Shown here in pieces: positions 26,015 through 41,525 of a stretch of DNA of 64,000 bases. The DNA is from Alphaproteobacteria bacterium (GTDB taxonomy: Bacteria; Pseudomonadota; Alphaproteobacteria; SP197), in NCBI GenBank assembly GCA_964291265.2, contig OZ219747.1:768001-832000 (forward strand). The letters run 5' to 3'. The notes under the pieces are model-generated. The model did no database searches and was not told the DNA's origin. It saw only the letters and a program-made list of their open reading frames with translations. Position 1 is the first letter of the stretch. Every line of letters begins with the position of its first letter. The position numbers were made by a program, and so were the translations under genes.

Positions 26015-26171
26015 GGCCGTCAACGCGCCGTTCCTCATTCCATGCGGGCCTGGCAGGCCCTCCAGGGCACGTGCTAGACCGGGTGAAGACAGTGAAGACG
26101 CGCCTGATGAAGCAACGCCTGCGTCCCGGGCTCTACGAGGATCTCGTGACCACATCCCTGAAGCGGGAGAT
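26015..26171 (+). repeat. Repeat A (helicase upstream region and first codons), copy 1
   Basis: Matches 30279-30436 with about 9 differences by eye. Confidence 0.9.
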
Positions 26172-29100
26172 CGAGATCCTGCGCGAGGACAGCTGGTCGG
26201 TCGAGACAGGCAGGGCCGACGACAGCCGGCTTGCAGGATTTCTGACCAGCCATGTCGCGGACCTGTTGTGCCGTGCCCTCGACGGGATGCCGGCAGAACG
26301 CCAGATCGCACTGGTGAACCGCGTGCTCGACATGCTCGGCGATCACGGGGTGCCCGACGATGCACATGTCACAGGGGCGGCAGACCTGCTGCTTGCCGTG
26401 GTCAGACGTCAGGGCCTTGAGGATTCGCCGACGGCGGCGGAACGGCCGATACGGTCCCTGCGCGACACCGGTCTTCTCGTCAACGGCCGGCGCGACGTGC
26501 AGGTCTCCGGCGAGATCGTCCGCGAGATTCCGAGCGCCGACGGCATCGATCTCCTCTGCGCCTTTGTCCGCTACTCGGGATTGCGGCTGTTTCGCCGGGA
26601 ACTCGAGGAGAGGGGTGCGGCCGGCATACCGGTGCGCGTCATCACCACGGTCTACACGGGATCGACGGAACGCCGGGCTCTCGATGCGCTTCACGATCTC
26701 GGGGCTCGCGTGAAGGTTTCGTATGATGTCGACCGCACCCGCCTCCATGCCAAGGCATGGCTCTTCCGCAGGGAGAGCGGTCTTGATACCGCCTACATCG
26801 GATCCTCGAACCTCACGCACACGGCCCAGGTGGACGGCCTCGAATGGAACGTACGGCTCAGTGCTGCCCGGAATCCGGAGGTGATCGGACAGTTCCGGGC
26901 GACCTTCGAGCAGTACTGGGAAGAGTCCGAGTTCGAGCCCTATGATCCGGAACGCGACGGCAGTCGTCTCGATGGCGCACTCAGGAATCAGCGCGGCCAT
27001 GCACCGGGGATCACGCTCCCCATCGATGCCGTCGCCAAACCGCACCAGGAAGAGGTTCTCGAAGCTCTTGAAAGCGAAAGAAGACGGGGTCATCAGCGCA
27101 ACCTCGTGGTCGCCGCCACGGGAACGGGAAAGACATGGGTCGCTGCCTTCGATTTCCGCCGGCTGCGCCGGAACCACCAGGTTCGCTCCCTCTTGTTCGT
27201 CGCCCATCGCAAGGAAATTCTTGAGCAGAGTCAGAGGGTTTTCCAGATCGTTCTGCGTGATCCCTCGTTTGGCGAGCGGCTGGTTGCCGGTGAGCGTCCG
27301 CGGCAGGGACGGCACGTCTTTGCCTCGGTGCAGTCCCTGCATAATCGGGTTGACGGCATCGATCCGTCAGGATTCGATGTCGTCATCATCGACGAGTTCC
27401 ATCACGCTGCGGCCAGCAGCTACGAGCGCCTGCTCAACCGTTTGCGGCCTCGGTTTCTCCTGGGTCTCACGGCTACCCCGGAACGGACCGACGGCCAGTC
27501 CATCCTCGGCTGGTTTGATGGCCGCATTGCCTCCGAATCCCGGCTCTGGGACGCCCTCGACCAGGGACTCCTGTGCCCCTTCCACTATTTCGGGATCAAC
27601 GACGGTACGGACCTCACGAATGTGCGCTTCCGGCAGGGACGCTATATGGCAGGCGATCTCGACAGGCTCTTCACGGGTGATCATGCGAGGGTGCGCCGGA
27701 TCATTCAGGCCGTCGGCGACCATGTTCCCGACCCGCAGGGGATGCGCGCCCTGGGCTTTTGCGCTGGTGTGAGCCATGCGCACTTCATGGCGGATGAGTT
27801 CTCCCGTTCGGGACTGAACGCCGCGGCTCTCGACAATGCGACACCGCATGCGGAGCGCACCAGGGCGCTCTCCAGCCTGCGCACCGGTGACCTCCATATC
27901 ATCTTCACCGTCGATCTCTTCAACGAGGGTGTCGATATCCGCGAAGTCGACACCATTCTCATGCTGCGTCCGACCGAGAGCGCCACGGTCTTTCTTCAGC
28001 AGCTGGGCCGAGGGTTGCGTTGGGCCGAGGGCAAGCAGGTGCTGACCGTTCTCGATTTCGTCGGTCAGGCCCGCCGCGAGTACCGCTTCGACATGCGCTA
28101 CCAGGCCCTCGTCGGCGGCACCAGGCAGCAGGTCAGGAAGGCTGTCGAAGAGAATTTTCCCTATCTTCCGCCCGGATGCGCGCTCAGGCTGGACCGTATC
28201 GCCAGGCAGACCGTGCTCGACAACCTGAGCCGCGCCCTGGGTGCAGCGCGCCACCATCTCGTGGAGCGCCTGCGTACCCTTGGTCCCTCGACCCGGCTTG
28301 GCACCTTCGTCAACGATGGGGACGCCGAACTCCTCGACATTTACCGACGACCCTCCGCCGACCATTGCTTCAACGAGCTTCGCGAGCGGGCGGGTTTCGC
28401 ATCGCCATCCTCGAAGGGACCGTTCCCGAAGGCGTTGGGCCGCATGCTTCACGTGAACGATCGCGAACGGTTCGAGACCTGGCGCGCCGTCCTGACGACG
28501 GACGAGTCCGTGGAACATCTTCCTCTTCGAAGGCGGCGCCTTGCGTGGATGTTCTTCGGCCTGCTTGCCGGTTCGAGGCCGCTCGGCGATGCCGATGAGG
28601 TCCTTTCGGCCGTCCGTGCCCGGCCCGAGGCGCGTGACGAGCTGATCGATCTCCTCGACATTCTCGAGGACCGCACCCGCACCCTTGCTCGACCGCTCGA
28701 AGACGGCGAAGCCAACCCACTGGCCAGCCATGCCACCTATTCGCTTGTGGAGATCACCGCCGCCTATGGCCTGACCGACGCCAGGAGGATCCTCAAGCGA
28801 CCACGCGAAGGCGTTCTCCGGGACAAGACGACAGGGACGGACCTGCTGTTCATCACCCTCGAGAAGTCGGAGAAGGACTATGCCCCTTCGGTCCGCTATG
28901 CCGACTACCCGATCTCGCCGCACCTTTTTCACTGGGAGACACAGAACACGACATCGCCGGATTCCCGCACCGGGCAGCGGTACATCGCGGGGACGGGGAA
29001 GGTTCTCCTCTTCGTGCGCGAACGCAAGCGCGATGACAGGAACGAGACCCGGCCCTATCACTGTCTCGGATACGCCAGCTGCCGGCGCCACGAGTCTTCG

Positions 29101-29181
29101 CGGCCGATGAAGATCGTCTGGGAACTCGAGCGCATGATGCCGGGATGGCTCTATCAGGCCGGCAAGGTGGTTGCCGGTTGA
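26107..29181 (+). CDS. PLD nuclease - SF2 helicase - DUF3427 protein (SauUSI-like type IV restriction endonuclease)
   Basis: RLHAKAW and IGSSNLT (PLD); ATGTGKT, DEFHH, GLTATPER, FNEGVD, QQLGRGLR (SF2); LFITLEK, LFHWETQ, LLFVR (DUF3427). Confidence 0.88.
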   Translation: MKQRLRPGLYEDLVTTSLKREIEILREDSWSVETGRADDSRLAGFLTSHVADLLCRALDGMPAERQIALVNRVLDMLGDHGVPDDAHVTGAADLLLAVVRRQGLEDSPTAAERPIRSLRDTGLLVNGRRDVQVSGEIVREIPSADGIDLLCAFVRYSGLRLFRRELEERGAAGIPVRVITTVYTGSTERRALDALHDLGARVKVSYDVDRTRLHAKAWLFRRESGLDTAYIGSSNLTHTAQVDGLEWNVRLSAARNPEVIGQFRATFEQYWEESEFEPYDPERDGSRLDGALRNQRGHAPGITLPIDAVAKPHQEEVLEALESERRRGHQRNLVVAATGTGKTWVAAFDFRRLRRNHQVRSLLFVAHRKEILEQSQRVFQIVLRDPSFGERLVAGERPRQGRHVFASVQSLHNRVDGIDPSGFDVVIIDEFHHAAASSYERLLNRLRPRFLLGLTATPERTDGQSILGWFDGRIASESRLWDALDQGLLCPFHYFGINDGTDLTNVRFRQGRYMAGDLDRLFTGDHARVRRIIQAVGDHVPDPQGMRALGFCAGVSHAHFMADEFSRSGLNAAALDNATPHAERTRALSSLRTGDLHIIFTVDLFNEGVDIREVDTILMLRPTESATVFLQQLGRGLRWAEGKQVLTVLDFVGQARREYRFDMRYQALVGGTRQQVRKAVEENFPYLPPGCALRLDRIARQTVLDNLSRALGAARHHLVERLRTLGPSTRLGTFVNDGDAELLDIYRRPSADHCFNELRERAGFASPSSKGPFPKALGRMLHVNDRERFETWRAVLTTDESVEHLPLRRRRLAWMFFGLLAGSRPLGDADEVLSAVRARPEARDELIDLLDILEDRTRTLARPLEDGEANPLASHATYSLVEITAAYGLTDARRILKRPREGVLRDKTTGTDLLFITLEKSEKDYAPSVRYADYPISPHLFHWETQNTTSPDSRTGQRYIAGTGKVLLFVRERKRDDRNETRPYHCLGYASCRRHESSRPMKIVWELERMMPGWLYQAGKVVAG

Positions 29182-29185
29182 CGAA

Positions 29186-29806
29186 TCACGCGAGACCGGG
29201 CACCAGATTCATGTAGACGACGCGCCACGTGGCCTCGTGGTCGGGTGTCGGCGTGTAGTGATCGATGCGGGTGACGGAGAGGTTCTCGGAGGCGAACATC
29301 AGCGATCCCTCGGGATCGAGTCCGAGAGCCAGGCCCAGGGCTGCGCGAATGGTGCCGCCGTGGGCGACTGCAATGATGTCCCTGCCGGCCCATTCCACGG
29401 TCAGCCGGCGGATCACCGGGGTCACGCGATCACAGAGGTCGGCGAAGCTCTCGCCATTGGGTGGCGTCGTGGTGGCCGGAGCAAGCCAGAAGCGATGGGC
29501 CGGCGCCGAGGCGCCGAGTTCGTCGTACCTCTTGCCGTGCCAGTCGCCGAAGTCCTGTTCACCAAGATCGGTTTCAACCTCGGGGCTGATCGTCCTCCTG
29601 CCGGCCGCGGCGATGCTCCGGGCCGTCTGTCGGGTGCGCCGGAGATGGCTCGTCACCCAGCGCGCCTCCTGCGGCAGCAGGGCCGCGAGAGCAAGGAAGC
29701 TCTCGAGGTCGCCGGTATCCGCGTTGGGATCGGTGGCGCCGTAGATTCGCCCGTCCGTTTCGGTGACCGGCGCATGGCGCACCCACCACCAGCGTGTCGG
29801 GGTCAT
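29186..29806 (-). CDS. cobC: Histidine phosphatase (CobC-like), duplicate copy
   Basis: WVRHAP, LGEQDFGDW, PPNGES, VAHGGTIR; adjacent to cobS. Confidence 0.8.
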   Translation of the reverse strand: MTPTRWWWVRHAPVTETDGRIYGATDPNADTGDLESFLALAALLPQEARWVTSHLRRTRQTARSIAAAGRRTISPEVETDLGEQDFGDWHGKRYDELGASAPAHRFWLAPATTTPPNGESFADLCDRVTPVIRRLTVEWAGRDIIAVAHGGTIRAALGLALGLDPEGSLMFASENLSVTRIDHYTPTPDHEATWRVVYMNLVPGLA

Positions 29807-30285
29807 GTCATGGCCACGGCGCCGGCCAGGACGCCGATTTCCGAGGCCTGCTGGATGGCGCCCAGAACGTCGCCGGTCTTGCCCCCCAGGACCGTCATGG
29901 CCAGCCAGCCCACCACGCATGCAGCGATGCCGCCGCCGGCCAGGGCCGCGATCCACGCCCAGGGAAAGGGGAGCACGAGGGCAAGGGCGGCGCCGACGAG
30001 GAGAGCGATGAGGACCTGGTCGAACTCCGGCTGGCCCGCCCCGGCCGCCATTCCCTCCTTCCTGGCATCCGGCATCATGCGCATCGCCACCACCATGGAG
30101 ACCCGCGAGAGGGCGGCGGCGGCGATCAGCGCCGCCAGGACGTCCATGGTGTTCTCGATGTCCGCCACGGCGGCGATGCGGGCGCCGATGGCGATGATGA
30201 GGGCCATGGCGCCGAAAGCGCCGATACGGCTGTCGCGCATGACGGCAAGCCGCCCCTCCCGGTCCCTGTGCGCGCCGAGGCCGTC
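29803..30285 (-). pseudogene. cobS: 5'-truncated cobS duplicate
   Basis: Same as C-terminal part of 35643-36404 from DGLGAHRDRE onward; N-terminus replaced by repeat A'. Confidence 0.88.
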
Positions 30286-30443
30286 AACGCGCCGTTCCTC
30301 ATTCCATGCGGGCCTCAGCAGGCCCTCCAGTGCACGTGATAGACCGGATGAAGACAGCGAAGGCACGCCTGATGAAGCAACGCCTGCGTCCCGGGCTCTA
30401 CGAGGATCTCGTGACCACATCCCTCAAGCGGGAGATTTCATGA
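30279..30443 (+). pseudogene. Repeat A', containing a 23-codon stub of the helicase gene
   Basis: MKQRLRPGLYEDLVTTSLKREIS* at 30372-30443 matches the helicase N-terminus. Confidence 0.88.
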
Positions 30444-30492
30444 GGCTATGCCTCGGACCGACGAGAGGCATCGCGTGAGAATGAGGACTTGA

Positions 30493-30604
30493 GCCTGACC
30501 AGCGCCGCTCCTGGCCATCAAGTCGGCTCCCGGGCCGGACAGCGGCAGGCCTTGCAACACATTCGGGCCCGCGACGTCACGTTGCAGTTGCCATTGCTCG
30601 GCAG
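30493..30604 (+). mobile_element. Degenerate right end of the IS4/DUF4338 element
   Basis: 112 bp colinear with 5788-5899, ending exactly at the TIR ...CTCGGCAG. Confidence 0.85.
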
Positions 30605-30810
30605 GTCCAATCAAAACCCCACCGACCGCACAGACAAACACGCAGCGTGGGACGGTCCTGCCCTCACCGAAGATCGCCGATCAGGGATATACTTGACGGA
30701 TGCCGAACCGAGAGCGAGGATTTGCGGTACCGCAACCTGATGCGGCGGGGATTCAGCGGGTGCGTACATGCGTGCCGTGGGTTTCATTGAAACATGGAGC
30801 AAAAACACAC

Positions 30811-31278
30811 ATGCAAGGCAATTCGAGCCCGAGGCTGACACTCTCCGTCTGGAAGGATTTCGTTCCCCCGCGCATCCTCGCCTTGCCTGATGAAGAGGGC
30901 GGGCGATTCCTGGATTCGAAGTCTGATTTGCAGGAAGAGATTTACTCTTGGCGACCACACGAGGATGTGTTCGCCGGAATCTCCGACAACAACATTCGAC
31001 TGGCGTTGCATCGTCAACTGATCGAAAGACTGGATGTTTCGAAATCACCGGGCGAAAGGCGCATGACGGCGCTCGAAGATTTCGTCACCGCAGCTGAAGA
31101 TGCCATAGTCTCTGGTGCTGTGGCCAGTGTACCGAGCGAGAGCGAGTCCGATGATGATTTCACTGGCGACAAGCAAATCCGGATTGACATCAATCCCTTG
31201 CTCGCGCTGACGTTACATTTGAGATGGCTTCTGTCATGCTTCGGAAATCGGCCTGGGATATCGGTATCGGTGCGATGA
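30811..31278 (+). CDS. Hypothetical protein, gene 1 of three-gene cassette
   Basis: GGAG upstream of ATG 30811; stop overlaps next ATG (ATGA). Confidence 0.7.
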   Translation: MQGNSSPRLTLSVWKDFVPPRILALPDEEGGRFLDSKSDLQEEIYSWRPHEDVFAGISDNNIRLALHRQLIERLDVSKSPGERRMTALEDFVTAAEDAIVSGAVASVPSESESDDDFTGDKQIRIDINPLLALTLHLRWLLSCFGNRPGISVSVR

Positions 31279-33269
31279 GCGCGCCCGTCCTGCTGTCGCC
31301 ATCCCAAGCTGAACCAGAGGTGGCGGAGGTTTTCGCAACCGGAAGCACGTGTGTTCTCTCCGTCAGTGAGGAACGCGCCTTTGACGGTGGGGATCTTCCT
31401 CTCGGCACCGTCTCGCTTCTGGCTGCAGTGTCCGAGGTCTCGACCTTGCCCAGGCTGATACGACGGGGAGCGTTTGAATGGCGGTTACCAAGTCTTGACG
31501 AGGCTGCTGATCAGGTTTCCAGGCTTTTGCATAGCGAGACAGACGATATGCGTCGGATGCATAGAGTGCTCGACGAGGTCGCGTCGATTGCCACCCGCGT
31601 GGGCCTCATCCATCCACGATTCGACCCCGTTGCTATCGAGCAAATGCCCTTTCGCCGGTCGACCACTATTGTGACAGACACATCGGGCGTACTTCAGGGT
31701 GCCCTCGATTTCGCCGCCCGCTTCTTGCATCCTGCCGCCCGCGTGAAGGTTCCTGCGATTGCGCAAATGGAGATCGCCAATCTCGCTGATCGCTTCCTGC
31801 GAATTCGCAGGGCAGCCAAAAGGAAGCGGCTCAGGGAACTGACGGAACATCTGACCAGCCAGGGTGGACAACGCGCCCTGTTGAGGATTGAGCTTCACAC
31901 CGACACCGAAGTCGAGCGAACTTACCTGCTCGGGGATCCGCTCCGCTCAGCATTCGAGAAGGATTCGGACCGCGACCTGAGGGATCTGGACATCAACTCA
32001 CCTATCAGATCCTACGCCGACCGCTTGATACTGGAAGCTGCACGACACCATCAAGCCCAATCGGGACCGGCGCATGCGGTTCACCTGCTGACTGGCGATC
32101 AAGGGCTGGCGCGCATGGCGTTGACCGAGGGCATTCGCCCGCTGTACTTCACTGCGACGAGTGCACGCGACGTGTTCGACCAGCGGCTGACCGGCAGGAT
32201 GTTCCATCCTTTCTCGGGAACAATCCGGCATGTGCCGTTGAACGCGCTGCTTTGGGAACTGGCCACCGCCTTCGGTTCGGCGCGCCTCACAGGGAACAGT
32301 GGGGAGTTCTTTGAGGTTTGCGCATTGGGTGAGCACTTGTCATGGGCTCCCTACCATGCCGAGCAGGATCTTCTCTGGTGCATCCGGGGGCCTCGGGCAT
32401 CTGGACGTCCGAACAACAGCAATGCCTCTGAAGCGACATCCGGGCGAATGTCTTCTCGAAGCCGGATGCAAGATTCGTCTTCCCCCTCTCCTGCCCGGCA
32501 AAATGCGGGTTTCCTCACATTCAACGTTGAGCGCATGTTCCAACTGATTTGCGCATTGGACGACCGTCAGGAGATGCACCATGATCAAGTGGAAGAAATT
32601 CTGCGATCCAAAGGCAAGGAGTACCGCCGATTTCTGAGTTCGGGTGGGCTGATCGACATCACCGACGGTGCCTGGAAGGCGAGCGAGCGTTTGTGCCGCC
32701 TTTCCTCCGCCCTGAGGAACGAACGCATCGAGGATGTGTGTGAGCTTCTTCTTGCCGTTCCGTCATTCGCTGCCTTTGCGAAAATCCTGGAGAGTCTGAG
32801 CACGGGAACGGCCATGGATACGGCTAGCCTGGGACGTAGGTTGAGAACCTACCGCAGCCTGGGTGAAATCACCTTGCTGTGTGCAGCGGTGGCCGGCGAG
32901 ATCTATGCCACACCGAATGTTCCAGACGCCGTGGCTTTCTCGAAGATTGCTTTGCGTTGTTTTTCCTCGCTTGATCGGGAAGGTCAGGGCCTGGTGGCCA
33001 CTGGCGAGTGGCTGGAATCGCTGATCCGCGACGAAGGAATCCATCCCGAAGTTGCGAGGCGGCTGCTTGAGGAGGCCAGCGAAACAGGCCTGCTCGGACG
33101 TTCAACCGAGGGGTCGACGACGCAGCTTCGTTTTGAGAAGCGTACAGTCGATGTGCTGCGGACCGAGTCCGGGCGGCCGGTCGTCAAGCGTGTCTACTTG
33201 TATCGGGGAGACTACCTGATTCCTGGAAAGGCAAGCGTGAGCTTGCGCATCAAGGGTCAACGGACATGA
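31275..33269 (+). CDS. PIN-domain-containing protein (~664 aa), gene 2 of cassette
   Basis: IVTDTS, VPAIAQMEI, YADRLILE, LLTGDQGLARMALTEGI give PIN acidic tetrad spacing; long unassigned N- and C-terminal regions. Confidence 0.72.
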   Translation: MSAPVLLSPSQAEPEVAEVFATGSTCVLSVSEERAFDGGDLPLGTVSLLAAVSEVSTLPRLIRRGAFEWRLPSLDEAADQVSRLLHSETDDMRRMHRVLDEVASIATRVGLIHPRFDPVAIEQMPFRRSTTIVTDTSGVLQGALDFAARFLHPAARVKVPAIAQMEIANLADRFLRIRRAAKRKRLRELTEHLTSQGGQRALLRIELHTDTEVERTYLLGDPLRSAFEKDSDRDLRDLDINSPIRSYADRLILEAARHHQAQSGPAHAVHLLTGDQGLARMALTEGIRPLYFTATSARDVFDQRLTGRMFHPFSGTIRHVPLNALLWELATAFGSARLTGNSGEFFEVCALGEHLSWAPYHAEQDLLWCIRGPRASGRPNNSNASEATSGRMSSRSRMQDSSSPSPARQNAGFLTFNVERMFQLICALDDRQEMHHDQVEEILRSKGKEYRRFLSSGGLIDITDGAWKASERLCRLSSALRNERIEDVCELLLAVPSFAAFAKILESLSTGTAMDTASLGRRLRTYRSLGEITLLCAAVAGEIYATPNVPDAVAFSKIALRCFSSLDREGQGLVATGEWLESLIRDEGIHPEVARRLLEEASETGLLGRSTEGSTTQLRFEKRTVDVLRTESGRPVVKRVYLYRGDYLIPGKASVSLRIKGQRT

Positions 33270-34399
33270 CTTTGCGCGAACGCATTAGGCAGCATGCATC
33301 CGGAGAAGGCGCTGCGGACTTCCTGTACGGCAATTTCGGTATCCTCGCCAATCCCTTTCCCGCCTCTAACCAGACGTCCGCCAATCCACACTATCCCATT
33401 GATGCCGATGCCGAAGTGGAAGCCAGAATCATCACGTTTCTGCGTGACTGCAGATCGCAGGTTGTGGTCGTCGAAGGCACCCAAGGAGTCGGAAAGACGA
33501 ACTTTCTGAACCATATTGAGAGCGAAGTCCGTGGCGCCTTGAAGGACCTCGAAGGCCATTACATGATCCGTTACCTGGCGGACCCGGAGCCGGCGTTCGA
33601 CGGTACGACCCGTCGTCTGTTCGAAGAGCTGGGAACAGAGCATCTTGATCGATTGAGAGAGAGACTCAGGGCTGATGGCCAGCCTATCGGCCAGGCGCGC
33701 GGTCACGACATGCAAAGGGCTCTGCGTCGGCTTGTCAGGTCCGACAACAGGCAGGATCAACTTGACTTGATGATGGAGTGGCTGCTGGGTCTGCGGTTGC
33801 TCAAGGTGCATCGACAATGCCTCGGAGTACAATTCCGCCTCGACACCGTCGAGTCCAAGACCGCTGCCCTGAGGGATATGGTTCAGGTGAGTGCCGCCGC
33901 AGGGGTGTTGAACGGCGTGTTTCTGTTGCTGGATGAGCTGGAGAAACAAGAGGGAGTTCTCGGGCCGACCGCAGTCGTGCGTTACCTTTCGGCATTGCGG
34001 TCTGTTGTCGACGCATTGCCTGATCGCCTGTTCTTGATGATCGGTATCACCCCTGATGCACTGCTGCGTTACTCGGCCGCCTTGCCAGCGCTTCGCGGTC
34101 GCCTTCAGAACCAGATCAAACTGGATCCCCTCACTGACGTGGTCCATGCATTGAACCTCGCTCGCTTCTACCTCCATGCCGCTCGTCGCGTTGCACGGAG
34201 TCAACGTGACGATGATGGGGGTGATGAAGATGTCCTGGAGGAGACAAAGGTAAGGTGTTGTTTCGAGAAACTCCTGAAGCATGCTCAACGCGCCGGTCAT
34301 CGTGGAGTCACGCAACGTGTCTTTCTTCACGAACTTCATGACCAAGCGGAGAGGAGAATTCAGTCGATCAGGTTTGATCGATCCATGCGTCTCGATTGA
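33266..34399 (+). CDS. P-loop ATPase (AAA+/STAND-like), gene 3 of cassette
   Basis: NPFP pre-motif; Walker A GTQGVGKT; Walker B VFLLLDELE; ALRGRL (possible Arg finger); ATGA overlap with gene 2. Confidence 0.8.
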   Translation: MTLRERIRQHASGEGAADFLYGNFGILANPFPASNQTSANPHYPIDADAEVEARIITFLRDCRSQVVVVEGTQGVGKTNFLNHIESEVRGALKDLEGHYMIRYLADPEPAFDGTTRRLFEELGTEHLDRLRERLRADGQPIGQARGHDMQRALRRLVRSDNRQDQLDLMMEWLLGLRLLKVHRQCLGVQFRLDTVESKTAALRDMVQVSAAAGVLNGVFLLLDELEKQEGVLGPTAVVRYLSALRSVVDALPDRLFLMIGITPDALLRYSAALPALRGRLQNQIKLDPLTDVVHALNLARFYLHAARRVARSQRDDDGGDEDVLEETKVRCCFEKLLKHAQRAGHRGVTQRVFLHELHDQAERRIQSIRFDRSMRLD

Positions 34400-34549
34400 A
34401 ATGACTGGCAATCAGGAACATTTCTTGTCAGGTCTGTGGATTGCCGATGTGACAGGGACCGGGCATGCTTGAGGCGCACCGGGCTCACGAGGTGCCGGTT
34501 TCAGTGGCCACTGCTGATGCATCAGAGCTCGCGATACACGCTTTGGACG

Positions 34550-34570
34550 ATGGGCCGCTTCGCGGCCCAT
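34550..34570. terminator. Perfect 9-bp stem hairpin (possible terminator; no U-tract)
   Basis: ATGGGCCGC-TTC-GCGGCCCAT. Confidence 0.35.
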
Positions 34571-34995
34571 GGGCGTCTGTGGTCGGTCTCTGTGCTGAGA
34601 GATCAGCGTCCCTGATGATTCGATGATCTGAGCGAAGCTTCACACTTCATGGTTTCCCGACGGTTCGGCAGGACAATCAACCAGGGAGTGAGAGATGAAG
34701 ACAAGGGACGTTTCCCTCTGCGCCAGACCGCGTGAGAGACGGAGTGCCTCGCCGGAACCCGGTGCCGGTTGCAAACGGTGAACCGCGAGACCATCGACGC
34801 CCTGACCGGTCCTGAGACGCCACGAGCGTTTGGGACTTGCCGGAACGTTGCCAGGAATCGAGAACGAAGCCTCCGGGCCGGAAACGGTGCGGTGTCGGCT
34901 CGCGAACGGCCCCGAAGCCAGGGGAAGCCGGTCAGGATATACCGATTCAACCTTCAGCCTTGTCGAAGGATCAGACGCAGAATGGGAAAGTCCTG

Positions 34996-36125
34996 CGGCA
35001 AGGTGGCTGCCGGTTGACGAACGATTCACGCGAGACCGGGCACCAGATTCATGTAGACGACGCGCCACGTGGCCTCGTGGTCGGGTGTCGGCGTGTAGTG
35101 ATCGATGCGGGTGACGGAGAGGTTCTCGGAGGCGAACCTCAGCGATCCCTCGGGATCGAGTCCGAGAGCCAGGCCCAGGGCTGCGCGAATGGTGCCGCCG
35201 TGGGCGACTGCAATGATGTCCCTGCCGGCCCATTCCACGGTCAGCCGGTGGATCACCGGGGTCACGCGATCACAGAGGTCGGCGAAGCTCTCGCCATTGG
35301 GCGGCGTCGTGGTGGCCGGAGCAAGCCAGAAGCGATGGGCCGGCGCCGAGGCGCCGAGTTCGTCGTACCTCTTGCCGTGCCAGTCGCCGAAGTCCTGTTC
35401 ACCAAGATCGGTTTCAACCTCGGGGCTGATCGTCCTCCTGCCGGCCGCGGCGATGCTCCGGGCCGTCTGTCGGGTGCGCCGGAGATGGCTCGTCACCCAG
35501 CGCGCCTCCTGCGGCAGCAGGGCCGCGAGAGCAAGGAAGCTCTCGAGGTCGCCGGTATCCGCGTTGGGATCGGTGGCGCCGTAGATTCGCCCGTCCGTTT
35601 CGGTGACCGGCGCATGGCGCACCCACCACCAGCGTGTCGGGGTCATGTCATGGCCACGGCGCCGGCCAGGACGCCGATTTCCGAGGCCTGCTGGATGGCG
35701 CCCAGAACGTCGCCGGTCTTGCCCCCCAGGACCGTCATGGCCAGCCAGCCCACCACGCATGCAGCGATGCCGCCGCCGGCCAGGGCCGCGATCCACGCCC
35801 AGGGAAAGGGGAGCACGAGGGCAAGGGCGGCGCCGACGAGGAGAGCGATGAGGACCTGGTCGAACTCCGGCTGGCCCGCCCCGGCCGCCATTCCCTCCTT
35901 CCTGGCATCCGGCATCATGCGCATCGCCACCACCATGGAGACCCGCGAGAGGGCGGCGGCGGCGATCAGCGCCGCCAGGACGTCCATGGTGTTCTCGATG
36001 TCCGCCACGGCGGCGATGCGGGCGCCGATGGCGATGATGAGGGCCATGGCGCCGAAAGCGCCGATACGGCTGTCGCGCATGACGGCAAGCCGCCCCTCCC
36101 GGTCCCTGTGCGCGCCGAGGCCGTC
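34996..36125 (+). repeat. Repeat B', copy 2
   Basis: Begins with the last helicase codons (GKVAAG* vs GKVVAG*); ends at GGCCGTC inside intact cobS. Confidence 0.95.
35026..35646 (-). CDS. cobC: Histidine phosphatase (alpha-ribazole phosphatase CobC-like)
   Basis: RHAP / HGG motifs; coupled to cobS. Confidence 0.8.
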   Translation of the reverse strand: MTPTRWWWVRHAPVTETDGRIYGATDPNADTGDLESFLALAALLPQEARWVTSHLRRTRQTARSIAAAGRRTISPEVETDLGEQDFGDWHGKRYDELGASAPAHRFWLAPATTTPPNGESFADLCDRVTPVIHRLTVEWAGRDIIAVAHGGTIRAALGLALGLDPEGSLRFASENLSVTRIDHYTPTPDHEATWRVVYMNLVPGLA

Positions 36126-36404
36126 CGCCAGGTCCGCCAGGCCGTCTTCGTGGAGACCCCGGGTGAGAACCAGCATGGCGAGGACGCAGACGATCGCCGC
36201 CAGGACCGGTCCAAGGCCAAGCCAGATGGCGACGATGTAGAAGAGTGCCCCGACAAGGCCGATGGCCGCACCGACCACTGGAAACATCGCCACGCACCGG
36301 GCAAGCGATCGATCATCTCCGTTGCCTGCCGGAATCAGGGTCAGGAACTGCGTGGCAACGGCCAGGCTGGCGGCAAGCCCGGGTCTTTCCTGATGGTCCG
36401 GCAT
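35643..36404 (-). CDS. cobS: Adenosylcobinamide-GDP ribazoletransferase (cobalamin synthase)
   Basis: FLTLIP, LHEDGLADLADG, MRDSRIGAFG, GGKTGDVLGA. Confidence 0.95.
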   Translation of the reverse strand: MPDHQERPGLAASLAVATQFLTLIPAGNGDDRSLARCVAMFPVVGAAIGLVGALFYIVAIWLGLGPVLAAIVCVLAMLVLTRGLHEDGLADLADGLGAHRDREGRLAVMRDSRIGAFGAMALIIAIGARIAAVADIENTMDVLAALIAAAALSRVSMVVAMRMMPDARKEGMAAGAGQPEFDQVLIALLVGAALALVLPFPWAWIAALAGGGIAACVVGWLAMTVLGGKTGDVLGAIQQASEIGVLAGAVAMT

Positions 36405-36464
36405 GGCGCTGCTTATCCGATTGTTGGCCGACAAGGTCAAGGGTAAGTAGGATGCGAGCAGCCG

Positions 36465-37499
36465 ATGGCCTCCGGATCCACCATGATCTCCGCCCTTGCC
36501 GACATCCGGAACCTGTTGCAGGACCTCCCGCCCCCCGACGCAGGCGCCGCCGCCGGAGCAGCCGCGCGCAATGACAGGCTGACAAAGCCACCCGGATCAC
36601 TCGGCAGACTGGAGGAACTGGTCGTGTGGATGGCGTCCTGGCAGGGGCGTCATACGCCTCGGGCCAGCGATGTCGCCTGCATGGTGTTTGCCGGCAACCA
36701 TGGCGTGGCCGGAGAAGGCGTGTCCGCCTTTCCCGCCGCTGTCACGGAACAGATGGTCGCCAACTTCGCCGCCGGGGGGGCAGGCATCAACCAGCTGGCC
36801 CGACTGCTCGACGCCCGTCTCGAGGTGGTGTCGTTGTCGCTCGAGCGGCCCACCGGAGACATCTCGCGGGAACCGGCGATGACCGAGACCGAGACCTGCG
36901 ATGCCTTCAGGACGGGCTTCGAAACCGTGCAAGGGGCGGATATCGCGGTGATCGGCGACATGGGGATCGGCAACACGACCGTGGCGGCGGCTCTCGGCGC
37001 CGCCCTCTTCGGCGGCGGAGGCGCCGAATGGGCGGGTCCTGGAACCGGTCTCGACCAGGAGGGCGTCCACCACAAGGCCGCCGTGATCGACCGGGCGCTG
37101 GAACGTCATCGCCGGCACGCGGCAGACCCCCTCGAGACACTTGCGTCACTGGGCGGACGGGAGATTGCCGCCATGGCGGGCGCCGTCCTTGCCTGCCGGC
37201 TGAAGAGGACGCCGGTGATTCTCGACGGGTTCGTCAACTGTGCGGCGGCCAGCGTACTCCATTGCCTCGAGGCCCGGGCCCTCGATCACTGCATGGCCGG
37301 GCATGTCAGCGCCGAACCCGCGGCCAGGCGCCTTCTCGATCACCTCGAGAAGAGACCGCTGCTCGATCTCGGCATGCGTCTCGGCGAGGGATCCGGTGCT
37401 GCCTGCGCGGCTCTCGTGGTCAGGGCGGCCGTCACGCTCCACGGCGGCATGGCCACCTTCGACGAGGCCGGTGTCAGCGGCAGACGGGATCCTCCGTGA
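36465..37499 (+). CDS. cobT: Nicotinate-nucleotide-dimethylbenzimidazole phosphoribosyltransferase
   Basis: LTKPPGSLGRLEE, FAGNHG, GDMGIGNTT, GGREIAA, MRLGEGSGA. Confidence 0.96.
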   Translation: MASGSTMISALADIRNLLQDLPPPDAGAAAGAAARNDRLTKPPGSLGRLEELVVWMASWQGRHTPRASDVACMVFAGNHGVAGEGVSAFPAAVTEQMVANFAAGGAGINQLARLLDARLEVVSLSLERPTGDISREPAMTETETCDAFRTGFETVQGADIAVIGDMGIGNTTVAAALGAALFGGGGAEWAGPGTGLDQEGVHHKAAVIDRALERHRRHAADPLETLASLGGREIAAMAGAVLACRLKRTPVILDGFVNCAAASVLHCLEARALDHCMAGHVSAEPAARRLLDHLEKRPLLDLGMRLGEGSGAACAALVVRAAVTLHGGMATFDEAGVSGRRDPP

Positions 37500-37927
37500 C
37501 CGGCAACCGGCAGCCCGCCCTGGATCTGGCCCGCGGCATAGGCCGCATGTTCGCCGCCATGAACCAGGCGAGCGTGACGGAGTTCACGGTCAGGAACGGC
37601 AGGAGAGCCGATGTCCTGGCGCTTGACGGCAAGGGGCGCTTCACCGTCGTCGAGATCAAGACCTCCGTCGCGGACTTCCAGTCCGACGCCAAGTGGCCCG
37701 ACTACCTCGATTACTGCGACTTCTACTACTTCGGCGTGCCGGAGGATTTCCCGGCCCATGTCCTGCCGGAAGAGCACGGCCTCATCGTTGCCGACCGCTA
37801 CGGCGCCGCGATCCTGCGTCAGGCATCCGAATCGCCGCTCAACGCGGCGCGCCGCAAGGCCCAGACCCTGGCCTTCGCCATCCAGGCGGGACGACGGCTG
37901 CGCCAGCTGACCGATCCCGGGGTATAG
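37496..37927 (+). CDS. MmcB family DNA repair protein
   Basis: GRRADV, VEIKTSVADF, DAKWPDYLDYCDFYYF, LNAARRKA; GTG overlaps cobT stop. Confidence 0.88.
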   Translation: MTGNRQPALDLARGIGRMFAAMNQASVTEFTVRNGRRADVLALDGKGRFTVVEIKTSVADFQSDAKWPDYLDYCDFYYFGVPEDFPAHVLPEEHGLIVADRYGAAILRQASESPLNAARRKAQTLAFAIQAGRRLRQLTDPGV

Positions 37928-38344
37928 ATCCCGCCAGGGATGCCTGACCCGGAACTCACCGGGTCGCCCGCCCGAAACGACCCTTGCAGACGGCTCGTTG
38001 GCAGCTACTCGACTCCATGCAACGGGGTGCCGATGCCGGCATGGGGCGTGGACGTGATCGATGCAGCCGCGCGAATCATGCGACTCCATCGACCCAGCTC
38101 CCCCATGGCCGAAACATCGCGCGGTCCGCGAGGTCCTTCGCATACTCGGTCAGTGCATCGCACCGCTCATCAGCGTCAAGCCCTACCGGCATCATGATAT
38201 CCGCATGACAGGGATGATCGCGGGTCGGTGACGGCTCGACAGAACAGCCCACAGCCCTGATGTCGTCAGCGGACAGGCCACACAGGGGCCGTCCACAAGG
38301 GAAGGACGAGGCCGCTACGATACGCACAAAAAACACGAACAGCC

Positions 38345-38445
38345 GAAAAGGGACATCTGGCTCAAAGCCTCTGCGCAAGCATCCCTGGAAACGCATCTTC
38401 AACCGGTGACAGTCGCCAACGATCACCTCGTGACCGAACGCTTGC
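38345..38445 (-). repeat. ~100-bp repeat with IS66-like terminus, inverted partner of 41427-41525
   Basis: Reverse complement GCAAGCGTTCGGTCACGAGGTGAT...TCACCGGTTGAAGATGCGTTTCCAG...CCAGATGTCC aligns to 41427-41525. Confidence 0.8.
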
Positions 38446-38491
38446 ATGCATCCCCTGTGGCATTATCGAAAGACACGATGCGGCATCGTCG

Positions 38492-38920
38492 TCATCGTGT
38501 TGTGGCATAGTCGGTCAGCGTCATCACGGACTCGCCATGCTCGGTCGGGGCCAGGGTGTTCGCGAATCGAAGGTCCGCCGTCAGCATGACCGCGCCGATG
38601 CGATGCGCGAGCGCGAGATAGACACAGTCGTAGATCGGACGGTCGAGCGCCAGCGCCAGACGCAGCGCATCGGCGGAGACGGTCTCGTCGGCGCCCCAGT
38701 GCACGGGCATGTCCGGCACGTTGGCCAGCAGGACGCCCGCGGCGCGGCGTTCTATCTCGCCCGCCCGCGCCTTGCGCCACAGCGCACATGCGACTTCGGA
38801 GACCATCAGGCGCGGCGCGTGCAGCTCCTCGCCGCTCGTCGCCAGCTCCTGCGCAAGGTCAGCATCCTCTTCGACGACCAGCCACTTCATCGCCACGCTC
38901 GCATCGACGACGAAGCGCAT
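38492..38920 (-). CDS. VapC/FitB PIN-domain toxin
   Basis: VVDASVAMKW, E in LMVSEV, YDCVYLALA, LTAD. Confidence 0.92.
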   Translation of the reverse strand: MRFVVDASVAMKWLVVEEDADLAQELATSGEELHAPRLMVSEVACALWRKARAGEIERRAAGVLLANVPDMPVHWGADETVSADALRLALALDRPIYDCVYLALAHRIGAVMLTADLRFANTLAPTEHGESVMTLTDYATTR

Positions 38921-39180
38921 CAGCAGTCATCGCGGTGACCGTGGTTGCGGTCCTCGCGGATCAGCACTTCTGCCGGCGTGTGCTTGCGCCCTTCGGTCAG
39001 GGGACGCAGCCGTTTCATGGCCTCCCCGAACGCGGCGCGCTTCGCCGCCATGTCGTCGTCGGCGGCGCACTCCAGTACATGGCGCACCTCGCCCTCCAGG
39101 GAGCGGTTGTTCAGGGCGGCGCGCTGCTTGAGGCGATCCACCACATCGTCGTCGAGTTGTCTCACGTTGATCGTCGCCAT
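38920..39180 (-). CDS. FitA-like ribbon-helix-helix antitoxin
   Basis: MATINVRQLDD...LKQRAALNNRSLEGEVRHVL. Confidence 0.9.
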   Translation of the reverse strand: MATINVRQLDDDVVDRLKQRAALNNRSLEGEVRHVLECAADDDMAAKRAAFGEAMKRLRPLTEGRKHTPAEVLIREDRNHGHRDDC

Positions 39181-39197
39181 CGGTTTGTCTCCGAGCA

Positions 39198-39216
39198 TGC
39201 TATCATATTGATATCA
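39198..39216. promoter_or_regulatory. Putative FitA autorepression operator
   Basis: TGCTATCA-tat-TGATATCA inverted repeat; TGCTATCA is the known FitAB half-site. Confidence 0.6.
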
Positions 39217-39654
39217 CTTCGTCACGGCATGTGCAAGCCCCCTGGACGACCATCGGGGGACACTCGCGGCCACGCGGTGACAGGGCTAGGAGACCGTCCT
39301 GTTCTTCGTGTTGCGAGCGCATATCTGGCCGGTATGGACCACCCTGAATCCGCCCGTACCGTCGCCGCCCTGCCCCGGTCCCCGAGCCGGGGAGGATGCC
39401 CGCGATGGTCGTGGCATCAATCGGCAGGGTCGCCTCGTCGGCGCAGGGCGTGGGGTACTTCGAGCGCGATGACGACTACGCCAGGGATGACAGGACCCAC
39501 AAGGACGCGAGCGCCTGAACGGGCATGGGCGCTGAGTCGCTGGGGTCGTCGGGGCCGGTCGAACCCGCTGCGTTCCGCCGTGGCCTCGAAGGCGAGGACC
39601 TCGGCGGGCGCAAGGAACTCGACCAGACCGGCGTTTCGAAAGTGGGTGAGTCTC

Positions 39655-39819
39655 CAACTTGGTCCTGCTGTCGCCCCGTGTCCTTTCCGACAGGTCATCG
39701 GGCGTCAGCCCCTCGGCGGCGGCGACGCGTGTGCAGACTTCCGCGACCTGAAATTCGTTCCCGTCCGACAATGCCTTGAGGACGGAGAGCATCAGCGACT
39801 GGAAATCAGGGACGGGCAT
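39655..39819 (-). pseudogene. Mrr restriction endonuclease N-terminal fragment
   Basis: MPVPDFQSLMLSVLKALSDG...LTPDDLSER resembles Mrr_N; similarity lost after about 55 aa. Confidence 0.7.
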
Positions 39820-40138
39820 CGGCCGCCGCACCTGTTGTCGCCACCTGCCGCGGTGTCACGCACTTCGCGATCTCGCGGCCGGCCGTGATCTCCGCTTGGC
39901 GAAGCTCCCAAGTCTTCTGCAAGTTCATCCAGAGTTGCGGCGTCGTCCCGAAATAGCGCGCGAGCCGCAGCGCCGTGTCTGCGCTCACGCCCCGCTGACC
40001 GTTCAGGATCATCGTGACTCGGTTCACCGGCACGCCCAGCGCCTTCGACAGCGCATTGGCCGACAGCCGGAGCTCGTCAAGCTCGCTGCGCAGGATTTCG
40101 CCCGGATGCACCGGCCTCATACCGTTCCTTGCGTTCAT
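39806..40138 (-). CDS. higA: HigA family antitoxin
   Basis: MRPVHPGEIL, VPVNRV, TALRLARYFGTTPQLWMNLQ. Confidence 0.93.
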   Translation of the reverse strand: MNARNGMRPVHPGEILRSELDELRLSANALSKALGVPVNRVTMILNGQRGVSADTALRLARYFGTTPQLWMNLQKTWELRQAEITAGREIAKCVTPRQVATTGAAADARP

Positions 40139-40149
40139 GTCACATTCCT

Positions 40150-40428
40150 TCAGTGATAATCCACGATCTCCACATCTTCCGGCCCGTCGTCCGTCCAGCG
40201 AAAGCAGACGCGCCATTGCGCGTTGATCCGAATGCTGTACTGCCCGGCGCGGTCGCCCCGCAGCGTTTCCAGCCGGTTGCTCGGCAACGCGGCAAGGTCT
40301 CCGAGCGTATCCGCGCTGTCCAGCAGGATCAGTCGACGCACTGCCTGACTGGCGAAGCCTTGAAACACCGCGACGCGTCGCCCCTCGAAGAAGCGCCGCG
40401 TCTCCCGATCCTTGAAGCTCCATATCAT
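40150..40428 (-). CDS. higB: HigB (RelE-like) toxin
   Basis: MIWSFKD, PSNRLETLRGDRAGQYSIRINAQWRVCF, EIVDYH. Confidence 0.93.
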   Translation of the reverse strand: MIWSFKDRETRRFFEGRRVAVFQGFASQAVRRLILLDSADTLGDLAALPSNRLETLRGDRAGQYSIRINAQWRVCFRWTDDGPEDVEIVDYH

Positions 40429-41400: not shown

Positions 41401-41426
41401 GATGACGGCCTGATGGGACTGACGGT

Positions 41427-41525
41427 GCAAGCGTTCGCTCACGCGGTGATTGCTGGTGATGTTCACCGGTTGAGGATGCGTTTCCAGTCCTTGCGAAGAG
41501 GCCTCGCCCAGATGTCCGTTTTACC
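41427..41525 (+). repeat. ~100-bp repeat with IS66-like terminus
   Basis: Inverted partner of 38345-38445; terminus also matches 821-836. Confidence 0.8.

Follow-up and report, generated by a model that had tools for sequence, protein, structure and literature searches.

The potD-cobC interval was analyzed in a 64,000-nucleotide stretch of an alphaproteobacterial genome (lineage SP197; GenBank assembly GCA_964291265.2, contig OZ219747.1, positions 768,001 to 832,000 of the forward strand). This whole stretch is called the window, and positions are counted from its first letter. The interval contains two units in head-to-tail order (Table 1). Unit 1 carries an intact gene for a predicted SauUSI-type type IV restriction enzyme, called the helicase gene here. 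Unit 2 retains only the two ends of a second copy of this gene. Between these ends lie insertion sequence (IS) debris and a 3.6-kb cassette of three genes (c1, c2, and c3). The left repeats of the two units are called A and A', and the right repeats are called B and B'. We read the locus as a likely old and very likely real tandem, in which the second SauUSI-type gene was replaced by IS debris and a mobile trio that is likely an ATPase-gated PIN-nuclease anti-phage system. We give this reading as a whole a probability of about 50%.

Table 1. Features of the potD-cobC interval, in window positions (aa, amino acids; ORF, open reading frame)
Feature	Position	Strand	Description
Unit 1	26015..30278		4,264 bp; A, intact helicase-nuclease gene, B; from self-comparison and base-level alignment
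A	26015..26171	+	Upstream region and first 22 codons of the helicase gene
Predicted SauUSI-type type IV restriction gene	26107..29181	+	1,024 aa; PLD nuclease, SF2 helicase, DUF3427; start 26107 inferred from relatives
B	29160..30285		Helicase 3' tip; cobC-like copy 1 (29186-29806, minus); 3' 483 bp of cobS (29803-30285, minus; 5' end missing)
Unit 2	30279..36118		5,840 bp; A', IS debris, three-gene cassette, IS debris, B'; from self-comparison and alignment
Junction microhomology GGCCGTC	30279..30285		Partners 26015-26021 and 36119-36125
A'	30279..30436	+	Copy of A; 22-codon helicase remnant at 30372-30436
First 56 bp of a 344-bp repeat	30440..30495		Four near-full copies elsewhere in the genome
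IS4-family element, downstream end	30493..30605	+	88% alike to other copies
c1	30811..31278	+	155-aa acidic protein, no known family; stop overlaps the likely c2 start (ATGA)
c2	31275..33269	+	664 aa from the likely start at 31275 (677 aa from 31236); N-terminal domain, predicted PIN domain, winged-helix-like domains
c3	33266..34399	+	377-aa P-loop ATPase, BrxD/DUF2791-like; overlaps the c2 stop (ATGA)
ISAs1-family element end	34412..34544		82% alike to other copies
Repeated element, 5' end	34548..34727	+	With an ORF
Second ISAs1-family element, decayed end	34717..34995	+	74% alike; terminal GGAAAGTCCTG adjoins B'
B'	34996..36125		Helicase 3' tip; cobC-like copy 2 (35026-35646, minus); runs on into full cobS (35643-36440, minus)
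cobT	36465-37499		Next after full cobS

A preliminary description of this DNA had given the layout as A-helicase-B followed by A'-IS end-cassette-B', with GGCCGTC at 26015, 30279, and 36119. Self-comparison and alignment bear this out, and the segment 26015-30285 recurs head to tail. The motif has 21 plus-strand copies in the window, including these three. The units join with an exact 7-bp overlap, and identity ends there on both sides. An overlap of at least 7 bp was found in 0.12% of 200,000 random local joins. Unit 2 does keep only both tips of the helicase gene, as had been described (22 codons of the 5' end and 22 bp of the 3' end). Position 26017, in the potD-side motif, is C here and T in 5 of 5 helicase-bearing relatives, where the junction match is 4 bp. 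The 7-bp match is therefore specific to this lineage. The C either predates the duplication or was copied later from the junction. The cobC-like gene scored under the NCBIfam cobC cut-off.

The IS end noted to the left of the cassette is present. That account was incomplete, since IS and repeat debris also lies on the right side. The left break in the second helicase copy adjoins the start of the 344-bp repeat and the IS4-family end. The right break adjoins an ISAs1-family terminus, with two further remnants just inside. The remnants flanking the cassette are 74 to 96% alike to copies elsewhere in the genome. We take the ORF at 34548..34727 to resemble a tyrosine-integrase N terminus; NCBIfam gave no match to it. 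The GC content of the cassette is 0.577, against 0.64 to 0.70 in its surroundings. Another copy of the IS4-family end was observed at window positions 5788-5899.

The product of the helicase gene matches the PADLOC model mREase_IV (E = 1e-255, residues 121-1029) and PDB 7CLG (E = 1.5e-82, residues 123-703). The latter is SauUSI, a cutter of DNA with 5-methylcytosine or 5-hydroxymethylcytosine (PMC7913695). Like SauUSI, the protein has a PLD nuclease, an SF2 helicase, and a C-terminal DUF3427 region. The nuclease matches Pfam PLDc_2 and has an HxK...GSxN motif at residue 214. The helicase contains the motifs GTGKT, DEFH, and QQLGRGLR and matches Pfam ResIII and Helicase_C. The C terminus matches DUF3427 (E = 6e-18) within a full-length PADLOC match. 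The protein differs from SauUSI in having about 120 extra N-terminal residues and in the weak similarity of its recognition domain, which scored only 5.3 bits against that of 7CLG (phmmer). Judged by its sequence, the unit 1 gene is a predicted SauUSI-type type IV restriction gene. A second SauUSI-like gene lies outside the window (G000 C2:1593178-1596636). Its product is 62 to 71% identical to the unit 1 protein, and it is broken near residue 907 by about 330 bp.

The cassette begins with c1, whose product has 25 D and E residues against 17 K and R residues. The single-sequence fold of c1 was unusable (predicted local distance difference test [pLDDT] score of 38.8). Its best ESM Atlas score was 0.80, which gave no lead. 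The possibility that c1 is a copy of the c2 N terminus was rejected, since hhalign found no match (probability 1.8%). The predicted structure of c2 has a pLDDT of 90.5. Its PIN domain spans residues 140-309 and aligns with 3i8o over 125 residues (Z = 14.1, root mean square deviation [rmsd] of 2.1). The top Foldseek rows for c2 are mostly PIN proteins. Its winged-helix-like domains (residues 431-500 and 564-674) have middling Z scores of 7 to 8.6. Residues D148, E179, D262, and D288 (677-aa numbering) are invariant in 132 of 132 sequences. The acidic site of PIN proteins is described as a D-E-D-D tetrad in PMC12065111. In its predicted structure, c2 keeps the PIN fold and the intact D-E-D-D site of an active nuclease. 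ESM Atlas placed c2 in unnamed clusters only, with PIN_4 on 13 to 14% of members.

The c3 protein contains a Walker A motif (GTQGVGKT), a Walker B motif (LLLDELEK), and an invariant R279. It matches PF10923 (E = 4e-6), and its Pfam matches are BrxC_BrxD and AAA_16. Two of the 50 members of the c3 family match PADLOC BrxD, the better at 2e-6. An hhalign comparison of c3 with a BrxD neighbor gave a probability of 55% (E = 1e-4, 207 columns). Neither c2 nor c3 has a PDB match by sequence. The trio has no named match in PADLOC (2023 release), PHROGs, or NCBIfam. A promoter scan found no sigma-70-like site.

Relatives of c2 are numerous: one search found 501 of them, and another found 274 clusters (50% identity). 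We compared 76 loci found through c2, from one genus relative, 9 GTDB genomes, and 66 metagenome contigs (33 to 80% identity). The set includes some near-duplicates, and a few of its members are also in the alignments used; locus L043, with a 32-residue match, was dropped. Where the flank is long enough to tell, c1 is the gene immediately before c2 (66 of 66 loci) and c3 is the gene immediately after it (59 of 59). The trio has no other constant companion; across 27 loci, no neighbor family recurs apart from 7 scattered pairs. The cassette is present in 1 of 22 other genomes of the genus, at another site and with 36 to 42% protein identity. It was found in none of 400 other genomes of the class. 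Neither c2 nor c3 has a match in 72,556 plasmids, and c2 has none in viral contigs. The spread of the cassette is patchy. Several of its relatives adjoin resolvase, integrase, RadC, ArdC, or IS genes in unrelated neighborhoods, and one lies beside a XamI restriction pair. The only other cassette of the genus (L027 7412-11123, in G013) is in a seeming integrative element with RadC-like, ParB-like, and integrase genes and an IS66-like insertion, by our own reading of the ORFs. Another cassette relative (L035 4474-10910) is disrupted by insertions in c1 and in c2 and is next to a repeat also found at window positions 34412-34544.

Three runs (X1, X2, and X3) were compared as contigs only. Depth does not equal copy number by itself and was used only for long pieces with few variant letters. 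X1 has no other letters outside B. Its depth is 61 at the potD flank, 63 in the helicase gene, 54 to 60 in the cassette, 123 in B, and 65 across cobS-cobT. The corresponding depths in X3 are 339, 356, 278 to 416, 619, and 334. In both runs, the helicase gene, the cassette, and the flank stand at about 1:1:1, and B is at about twice that depth. Contigs end exactly at 30285/36125 in X1 and X3, and the cobS contig begins at 36096 in 3 of 3 runs. The potD-side contig forks at 26015/26044 in X1 and X2, where the potD contigs stop at 26044. If the junction is real, a graph with 30-letter overlaps would need exactly these forks. The joint from the cassette to B' is listed in 3 of 3 runs. A piece of X3 at 30331 extends 65 letters each way and hence at least 12 bases into B. 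The X3 strain differs by 0.8% in potD and by 1.7% in the helicase gene. It shows this pattern of depths and the fork at the B end as well, so the tandem is not a simple recent duplication, in agreement with the preliminary description. The tandem is very likely real.

Over 158 columns, A and A' are 94.3% alike, the differences being 8 mismatches and 1 gap. Eight of these 9 differences lie within 49 noncoding bases (26052-26100). The sole change in the 22 coding codons is synonymous. B and B' are 99.3% alike and differ by substitutions at 29171, 29298, 29409, and 29462 and by a 4-bp indel at 29186. Three of the substitutions are in cobC, and two of these are nonsynonymous. Both the count of about 9 for A and A' and the inventory for B and B' (these cobC changes, with one substitution and the indel by the helicase stop) had been read correctly before. 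The B/B' differences are confined to the left 303 bp, and the right 823 bp is identical (Fisher p = 0.0014). The flank divergence of X3 predicts at least 6.6 differences in those 823 bp, where there are 0 (Poisson P = 0.0014). At base 29811/35651, both B copies have T, where X2, X3, and 9 of 9 relatives have C. This shared derived base indicates recombination between the B copies, which had been proposed as a route of excision. On these sequence comparisons, B and B' have probably been homogenized by recombination.

A' matches A in 149 of 158 columns and has the common spacer of the lineage, while relatives match A at 122 to 134 of 157 positions. Since it carries the lineage's own spacer, A' appears to come from this species. 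Five of the 8 A/A' substitutions look derived in A' (26066, 26093, 26098, and 26160 clearly and 26100 by majority), and the change at 26052 likewise seems derived in A', as judged by eye. One looks derived in A (26074), and 26083 is ambiguous. The 4-bp deletion of B is missing from both X3 contigs. Two A' changes are missing from X3, and one of them is missing from X2 too. Part of the divergence therefore postdates the tandem.

We surveyed the interval in the 22 other genomes of the genus. Twelve with linked potD and cob genes were examined in detail; G016 was too fragmented to place, and the flanks were not found linked in the other 9. None of the 22 showed a second B copy. Intact copies of the helicase gene occur in G012 and G005. 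Frameshifts break it in G032 and G015, part of its interior is replaced in G013, and it is interrupted in G009. Only a 3' stub is left in G004, G011, and G001, and the gene is absent from G002, G008, and G010. It is thus intact in only 2 of 9 relatives with any trace of the gene at this locus. An MFS-like gene follows the helicase gene in G015 and G005, and the interval of G010 contains metabolic gene fragments (our own ORF readings). The preliminary description was right that the interval varies across the genus. It had also called the interval a defense slot with two exchangeable alleles, which the survey does not bear out. No allele with the cassette alone was found at potD-cobC in the 22 genomes, and the other cargo looks metabolic or MFS-like. 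The interval therefore looks like a decay-prone slot rather than a demonstrated defense slot. The MFS-like genes are inserts at L017 5699-6874 (G015) and L018 5712-6889 (G005), in which about 75 bp of the helicase 3' end is repeated before cobC. This repeat is a separate small duplication at the same spot.

The duplication per se is an ordinary kind of event. Bacterial tandem duplications at microhomology junctions are kept alike or collapsed through recombination between their long repeats. This tandem resembles them in its short overlap, its head-to-tail partial copies, and the truncated gene at the join. It differs in persisting across strains about 1 to 2% apart, with the interior of one copy replaced. 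The tandem may have formed through the microhomology join. An IS insertion and deletion would then have removed the second helicase copy, and the cassette may have arrived with that traffic. The 1.1-kb B copies would recombine and stay alike, while the 157-bp A' copy would drift. A unit between long recombining repeats should be readily lost, so its persistence points to benefit or addiction.

We consider a defense role for the cassette somewhat probable. The proposed mechanism is modeled on systems whose nuclease is gated by an ATPase. These include Septu, PARIS, and Gabija (PMC12065111) and the STAND and ORC/Cdc6 switches (bioRxiv 10.64898/2026.10.19.760177). By this analogy, c3 would most likely be a switch that responds to infection or foreign DNA and turns on c2. 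The winged helices of the c2 protein would bind nucleic acid, and its PIN domain would cut RNA and abort the infection. The c1 protein may inhibit c2 or serve as an adaptor. We propose tentatively that the trio c1-c2-c3 makes up a minimal anti-phage system of a new kind, without a helicase or methylase, whose PIN-winged-helix nuclease is gated by a BrxD-like ATPase of the ORC/Cdc6 type. The unit would have been kept for long between recombining 1.1-kb repeats, and it would pair a methyl-directed restriction enzyme with a back-up abortive system at one locus.

Several results weigh against this account of the locus. Among the contigs listed, none bridges the junction by 31 letters on each side. 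The 36125-to-30286 joint is absent among the joints listed, with B' standing in for B over 30279-38250; the expected junction contig has only about 53 letters by k-mer reckoning, so the missing joint is no evidence either way. Depth in X2 is noisy (60 in B against 34 to 52 in the flanks). X1, X2, and X3 belong to a single study, and X1 is possibly the source sample. The Logan contigs merge near-identical copies, which partly hides copy-specific bases in X2 and X3. The homogenization test is weak with X2 divergence alone (P = 0.007 to 0.22). The A/A' differences number 8 per 49 noncoding bases against 1 per 109 other bases (Fisher p = 0.0004), and plain neutral decay predicts otherwise. Among the strain differences listed, the cassette has 9 synonymous and 10 nonsynonymous changes (two in one codon), where about 25% synonymous is expected; the helicase gene has 11 and 4. 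By these listed changes, the cassette shows weaker purifying selection than the helicase gene, and the counts give only modest support for selection on it. Of the 27 cassette loci compared, 8 have a strong PADLOC neighbor at a distance of up to 5 kb; the count is 4 of 20 for evenly spaced control windows of this defense-rich genome, which are not host matched, and enrichment is not clear. From the 66 metagenome loci, this neighbor test took 27 that had long flanks and were not near-duplicates, at E = 1e-35 or better, a cut-off chosen after the tables were seen. It left out ABC-transporter matches to mad3. For L066, one of the 8, the neighbor is a cysteine desulfurase with a possible housekeeping role.

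An assembly chimera of two co-occurring strains would explain the lack of a bridging contig among those listed, and the genome has 2.6% contamination. Such a chimera predicts that B would equal the flank in depth and that the helicase gene and the cassette would each reach half of it, whereas the depths in X1 and X3 are about 1:1:1 with B at about 2. The forks also coincide to the base with the microhomology, and they do so in independent short contigs, some of them from samples with other strains. We regard a chimera as very improbable. For a real tandem, we lean slightly toward duplication before replacement of the second helicase copy. The IS debris and the frequent loss of the helicase gene in relatives fit duplication followed by IS-driven replacement. 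The unequal divergence of the repeats had been taken to suggest import from a relative. It does not show this by itself, since the B copies were homogenized and some changes postdate the tandem; import from within the species is the form of that claim that still has some standing. The cassette allele would then have arisen in a strain of the same species and been joined in tandem to the helicase allele by recombination, with the junction formed in the donor lineage and B homogenized later. The A/A' changes avoid the 22 coding codons, apart from one synonymous change, as if both had once been selected as working genes, and this sparing of the coding tip leaves room for such an import. The restriction of the B differences to the left 303 bp and the derived base of A at 26074 also favor it. 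Against it are the absence of a cassette-only allele in the 22 genomes, the lack of any depth sign of one in X1 and X3, and the 4-bp deletion in B, which is younger than the tandem. The identical 37-bp and 59-bp patches are also explicable by short conversion tracts. Import is unlikely on this balance.

The cassette may also be an addiction module, with c2 as a PIN toxin and c1 as its antitoxin. Cells that excise the unit through B and B' would die, and the unit would persist without protecting its host. With its small acidic gene upstream of an overlapping PIN gene, the c1-c2 layout resembles that of type II toxin-antitoxin pairs. The persistence of the unit between recombining repeats, the mobile contexts of cassette relatives, and the lack of clear defense-island enrichment also agree with it. 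The ATPase, however, is present in 59 of 59 assessable loci and is not needed by a plain toxin-antitoxin pair, and c2 is about 5 times the size of VapC with conserved winged helices. Addiction and defense can also coexist. We consider an addiction module without a protective role quite unlikely and retain the ATPase-gated nuclease as the preferred reading of the cassette.

The cassette resembles several known systems in part. Its c3 protein shows weak similarity to the ATPase of Type 2 BREX (BrxD) and Shango (SngB; PF10923). A BREX paper describes BrxD as a stand-alone ORC/Cdc6 AAA+ ATPase whose role is uncharacterized (PMC12839542). BrxD pairs with the BrxHI helicase in a large locus, while the partner of c3 is a PIN-winged-helix protein. 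The trio has no conserved helicase, methylase, or PglZ gene as a neighbor. In 1 of 27 loci, BrxHI and BrxD adjoin the cassette as a separate convergent unit. The cassette was rejected as Type 2 BREX or Shango, since a linked BrxHI/SngC helicase and the other core genes are not conserved across the 27 loci. Menshen (NsnABC) likewise has three genes, an ATPase, and a PIN-fold protein, and its sensor-transducer-effector logic may apply to the cassette. It is described with a ParB-DUF262 sensor (NsnA), an ABC ATPase (NsnB), and a catalytically dead PIN domain in NsnC (PMC12065111). The cassette differs in its BrxD-like ATPase, in a PIN domain that keeps D-E-D-D, and in having no DUF262 match. It was rejected as Menshen, since 28 of 28 c1 members have no ParB-DUF262 Pfam match, PADLOC gave no match, c3 matches BrxC_BrxD and AAA_16, and the PIN tetrad is intact. 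VapBC-type pairs share the PIN fold of c2 (VapC matches at Z = 7 to 8). The c2 protein is much larger than VapC, has winged-helix domains, and is adjoined by the ATPase in all assessable loci.

The c2 model also aligns with PDB 9JXW (SiRe_0806) over 236 residues (Z = 13.4, rmsd of 4.3), about 110 of them beyond the PIN domain. By the title of its entries (PDB 9JXW/9JXX), SiRe_0806 binds cyclic tetra-adenylate (cA4). We found no paper on SiRe_0806 in the literature and none pairing DUF2791 with a PIN domain. No published description of the c1-c2-c3 trio was found in a search that had supplements and most subscription papers outside its scope (PMC10853773, PMC12839542, PMC12065111, and bioRxiv 10.64898/2026.10.19.760177 included, each by passage). 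The cassette is likely an unnamed variant of the ATPase-plus-nuclease kind of defense. This compact candidate defense operon offers clear catalytic residues for mutation and lends itself to direct testing. It would reveal the role of a BrxD-like ATPase that lacks the usual helicase beside it. The locus would be a readable case of a defense gene that was duplicated, knocked out, and replaced, with the cargo kept between recombining repeats. If the trio is the new system proposed above, the genome is a natural selection experiment for it.

Three other features of the window were observed. Tandem repeat arrays of 54/108 bp, 70 to 90% alike, lie at 1548-2600 and probably encode a repeat protein. 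A short repeat with dozens of copies genome-wide is present at 38300-38450 and 41426-41522, here inverted. The inverted pair encloses small toxin-antitoxin-like genes at 38492-40428, by our own reading of the labels.

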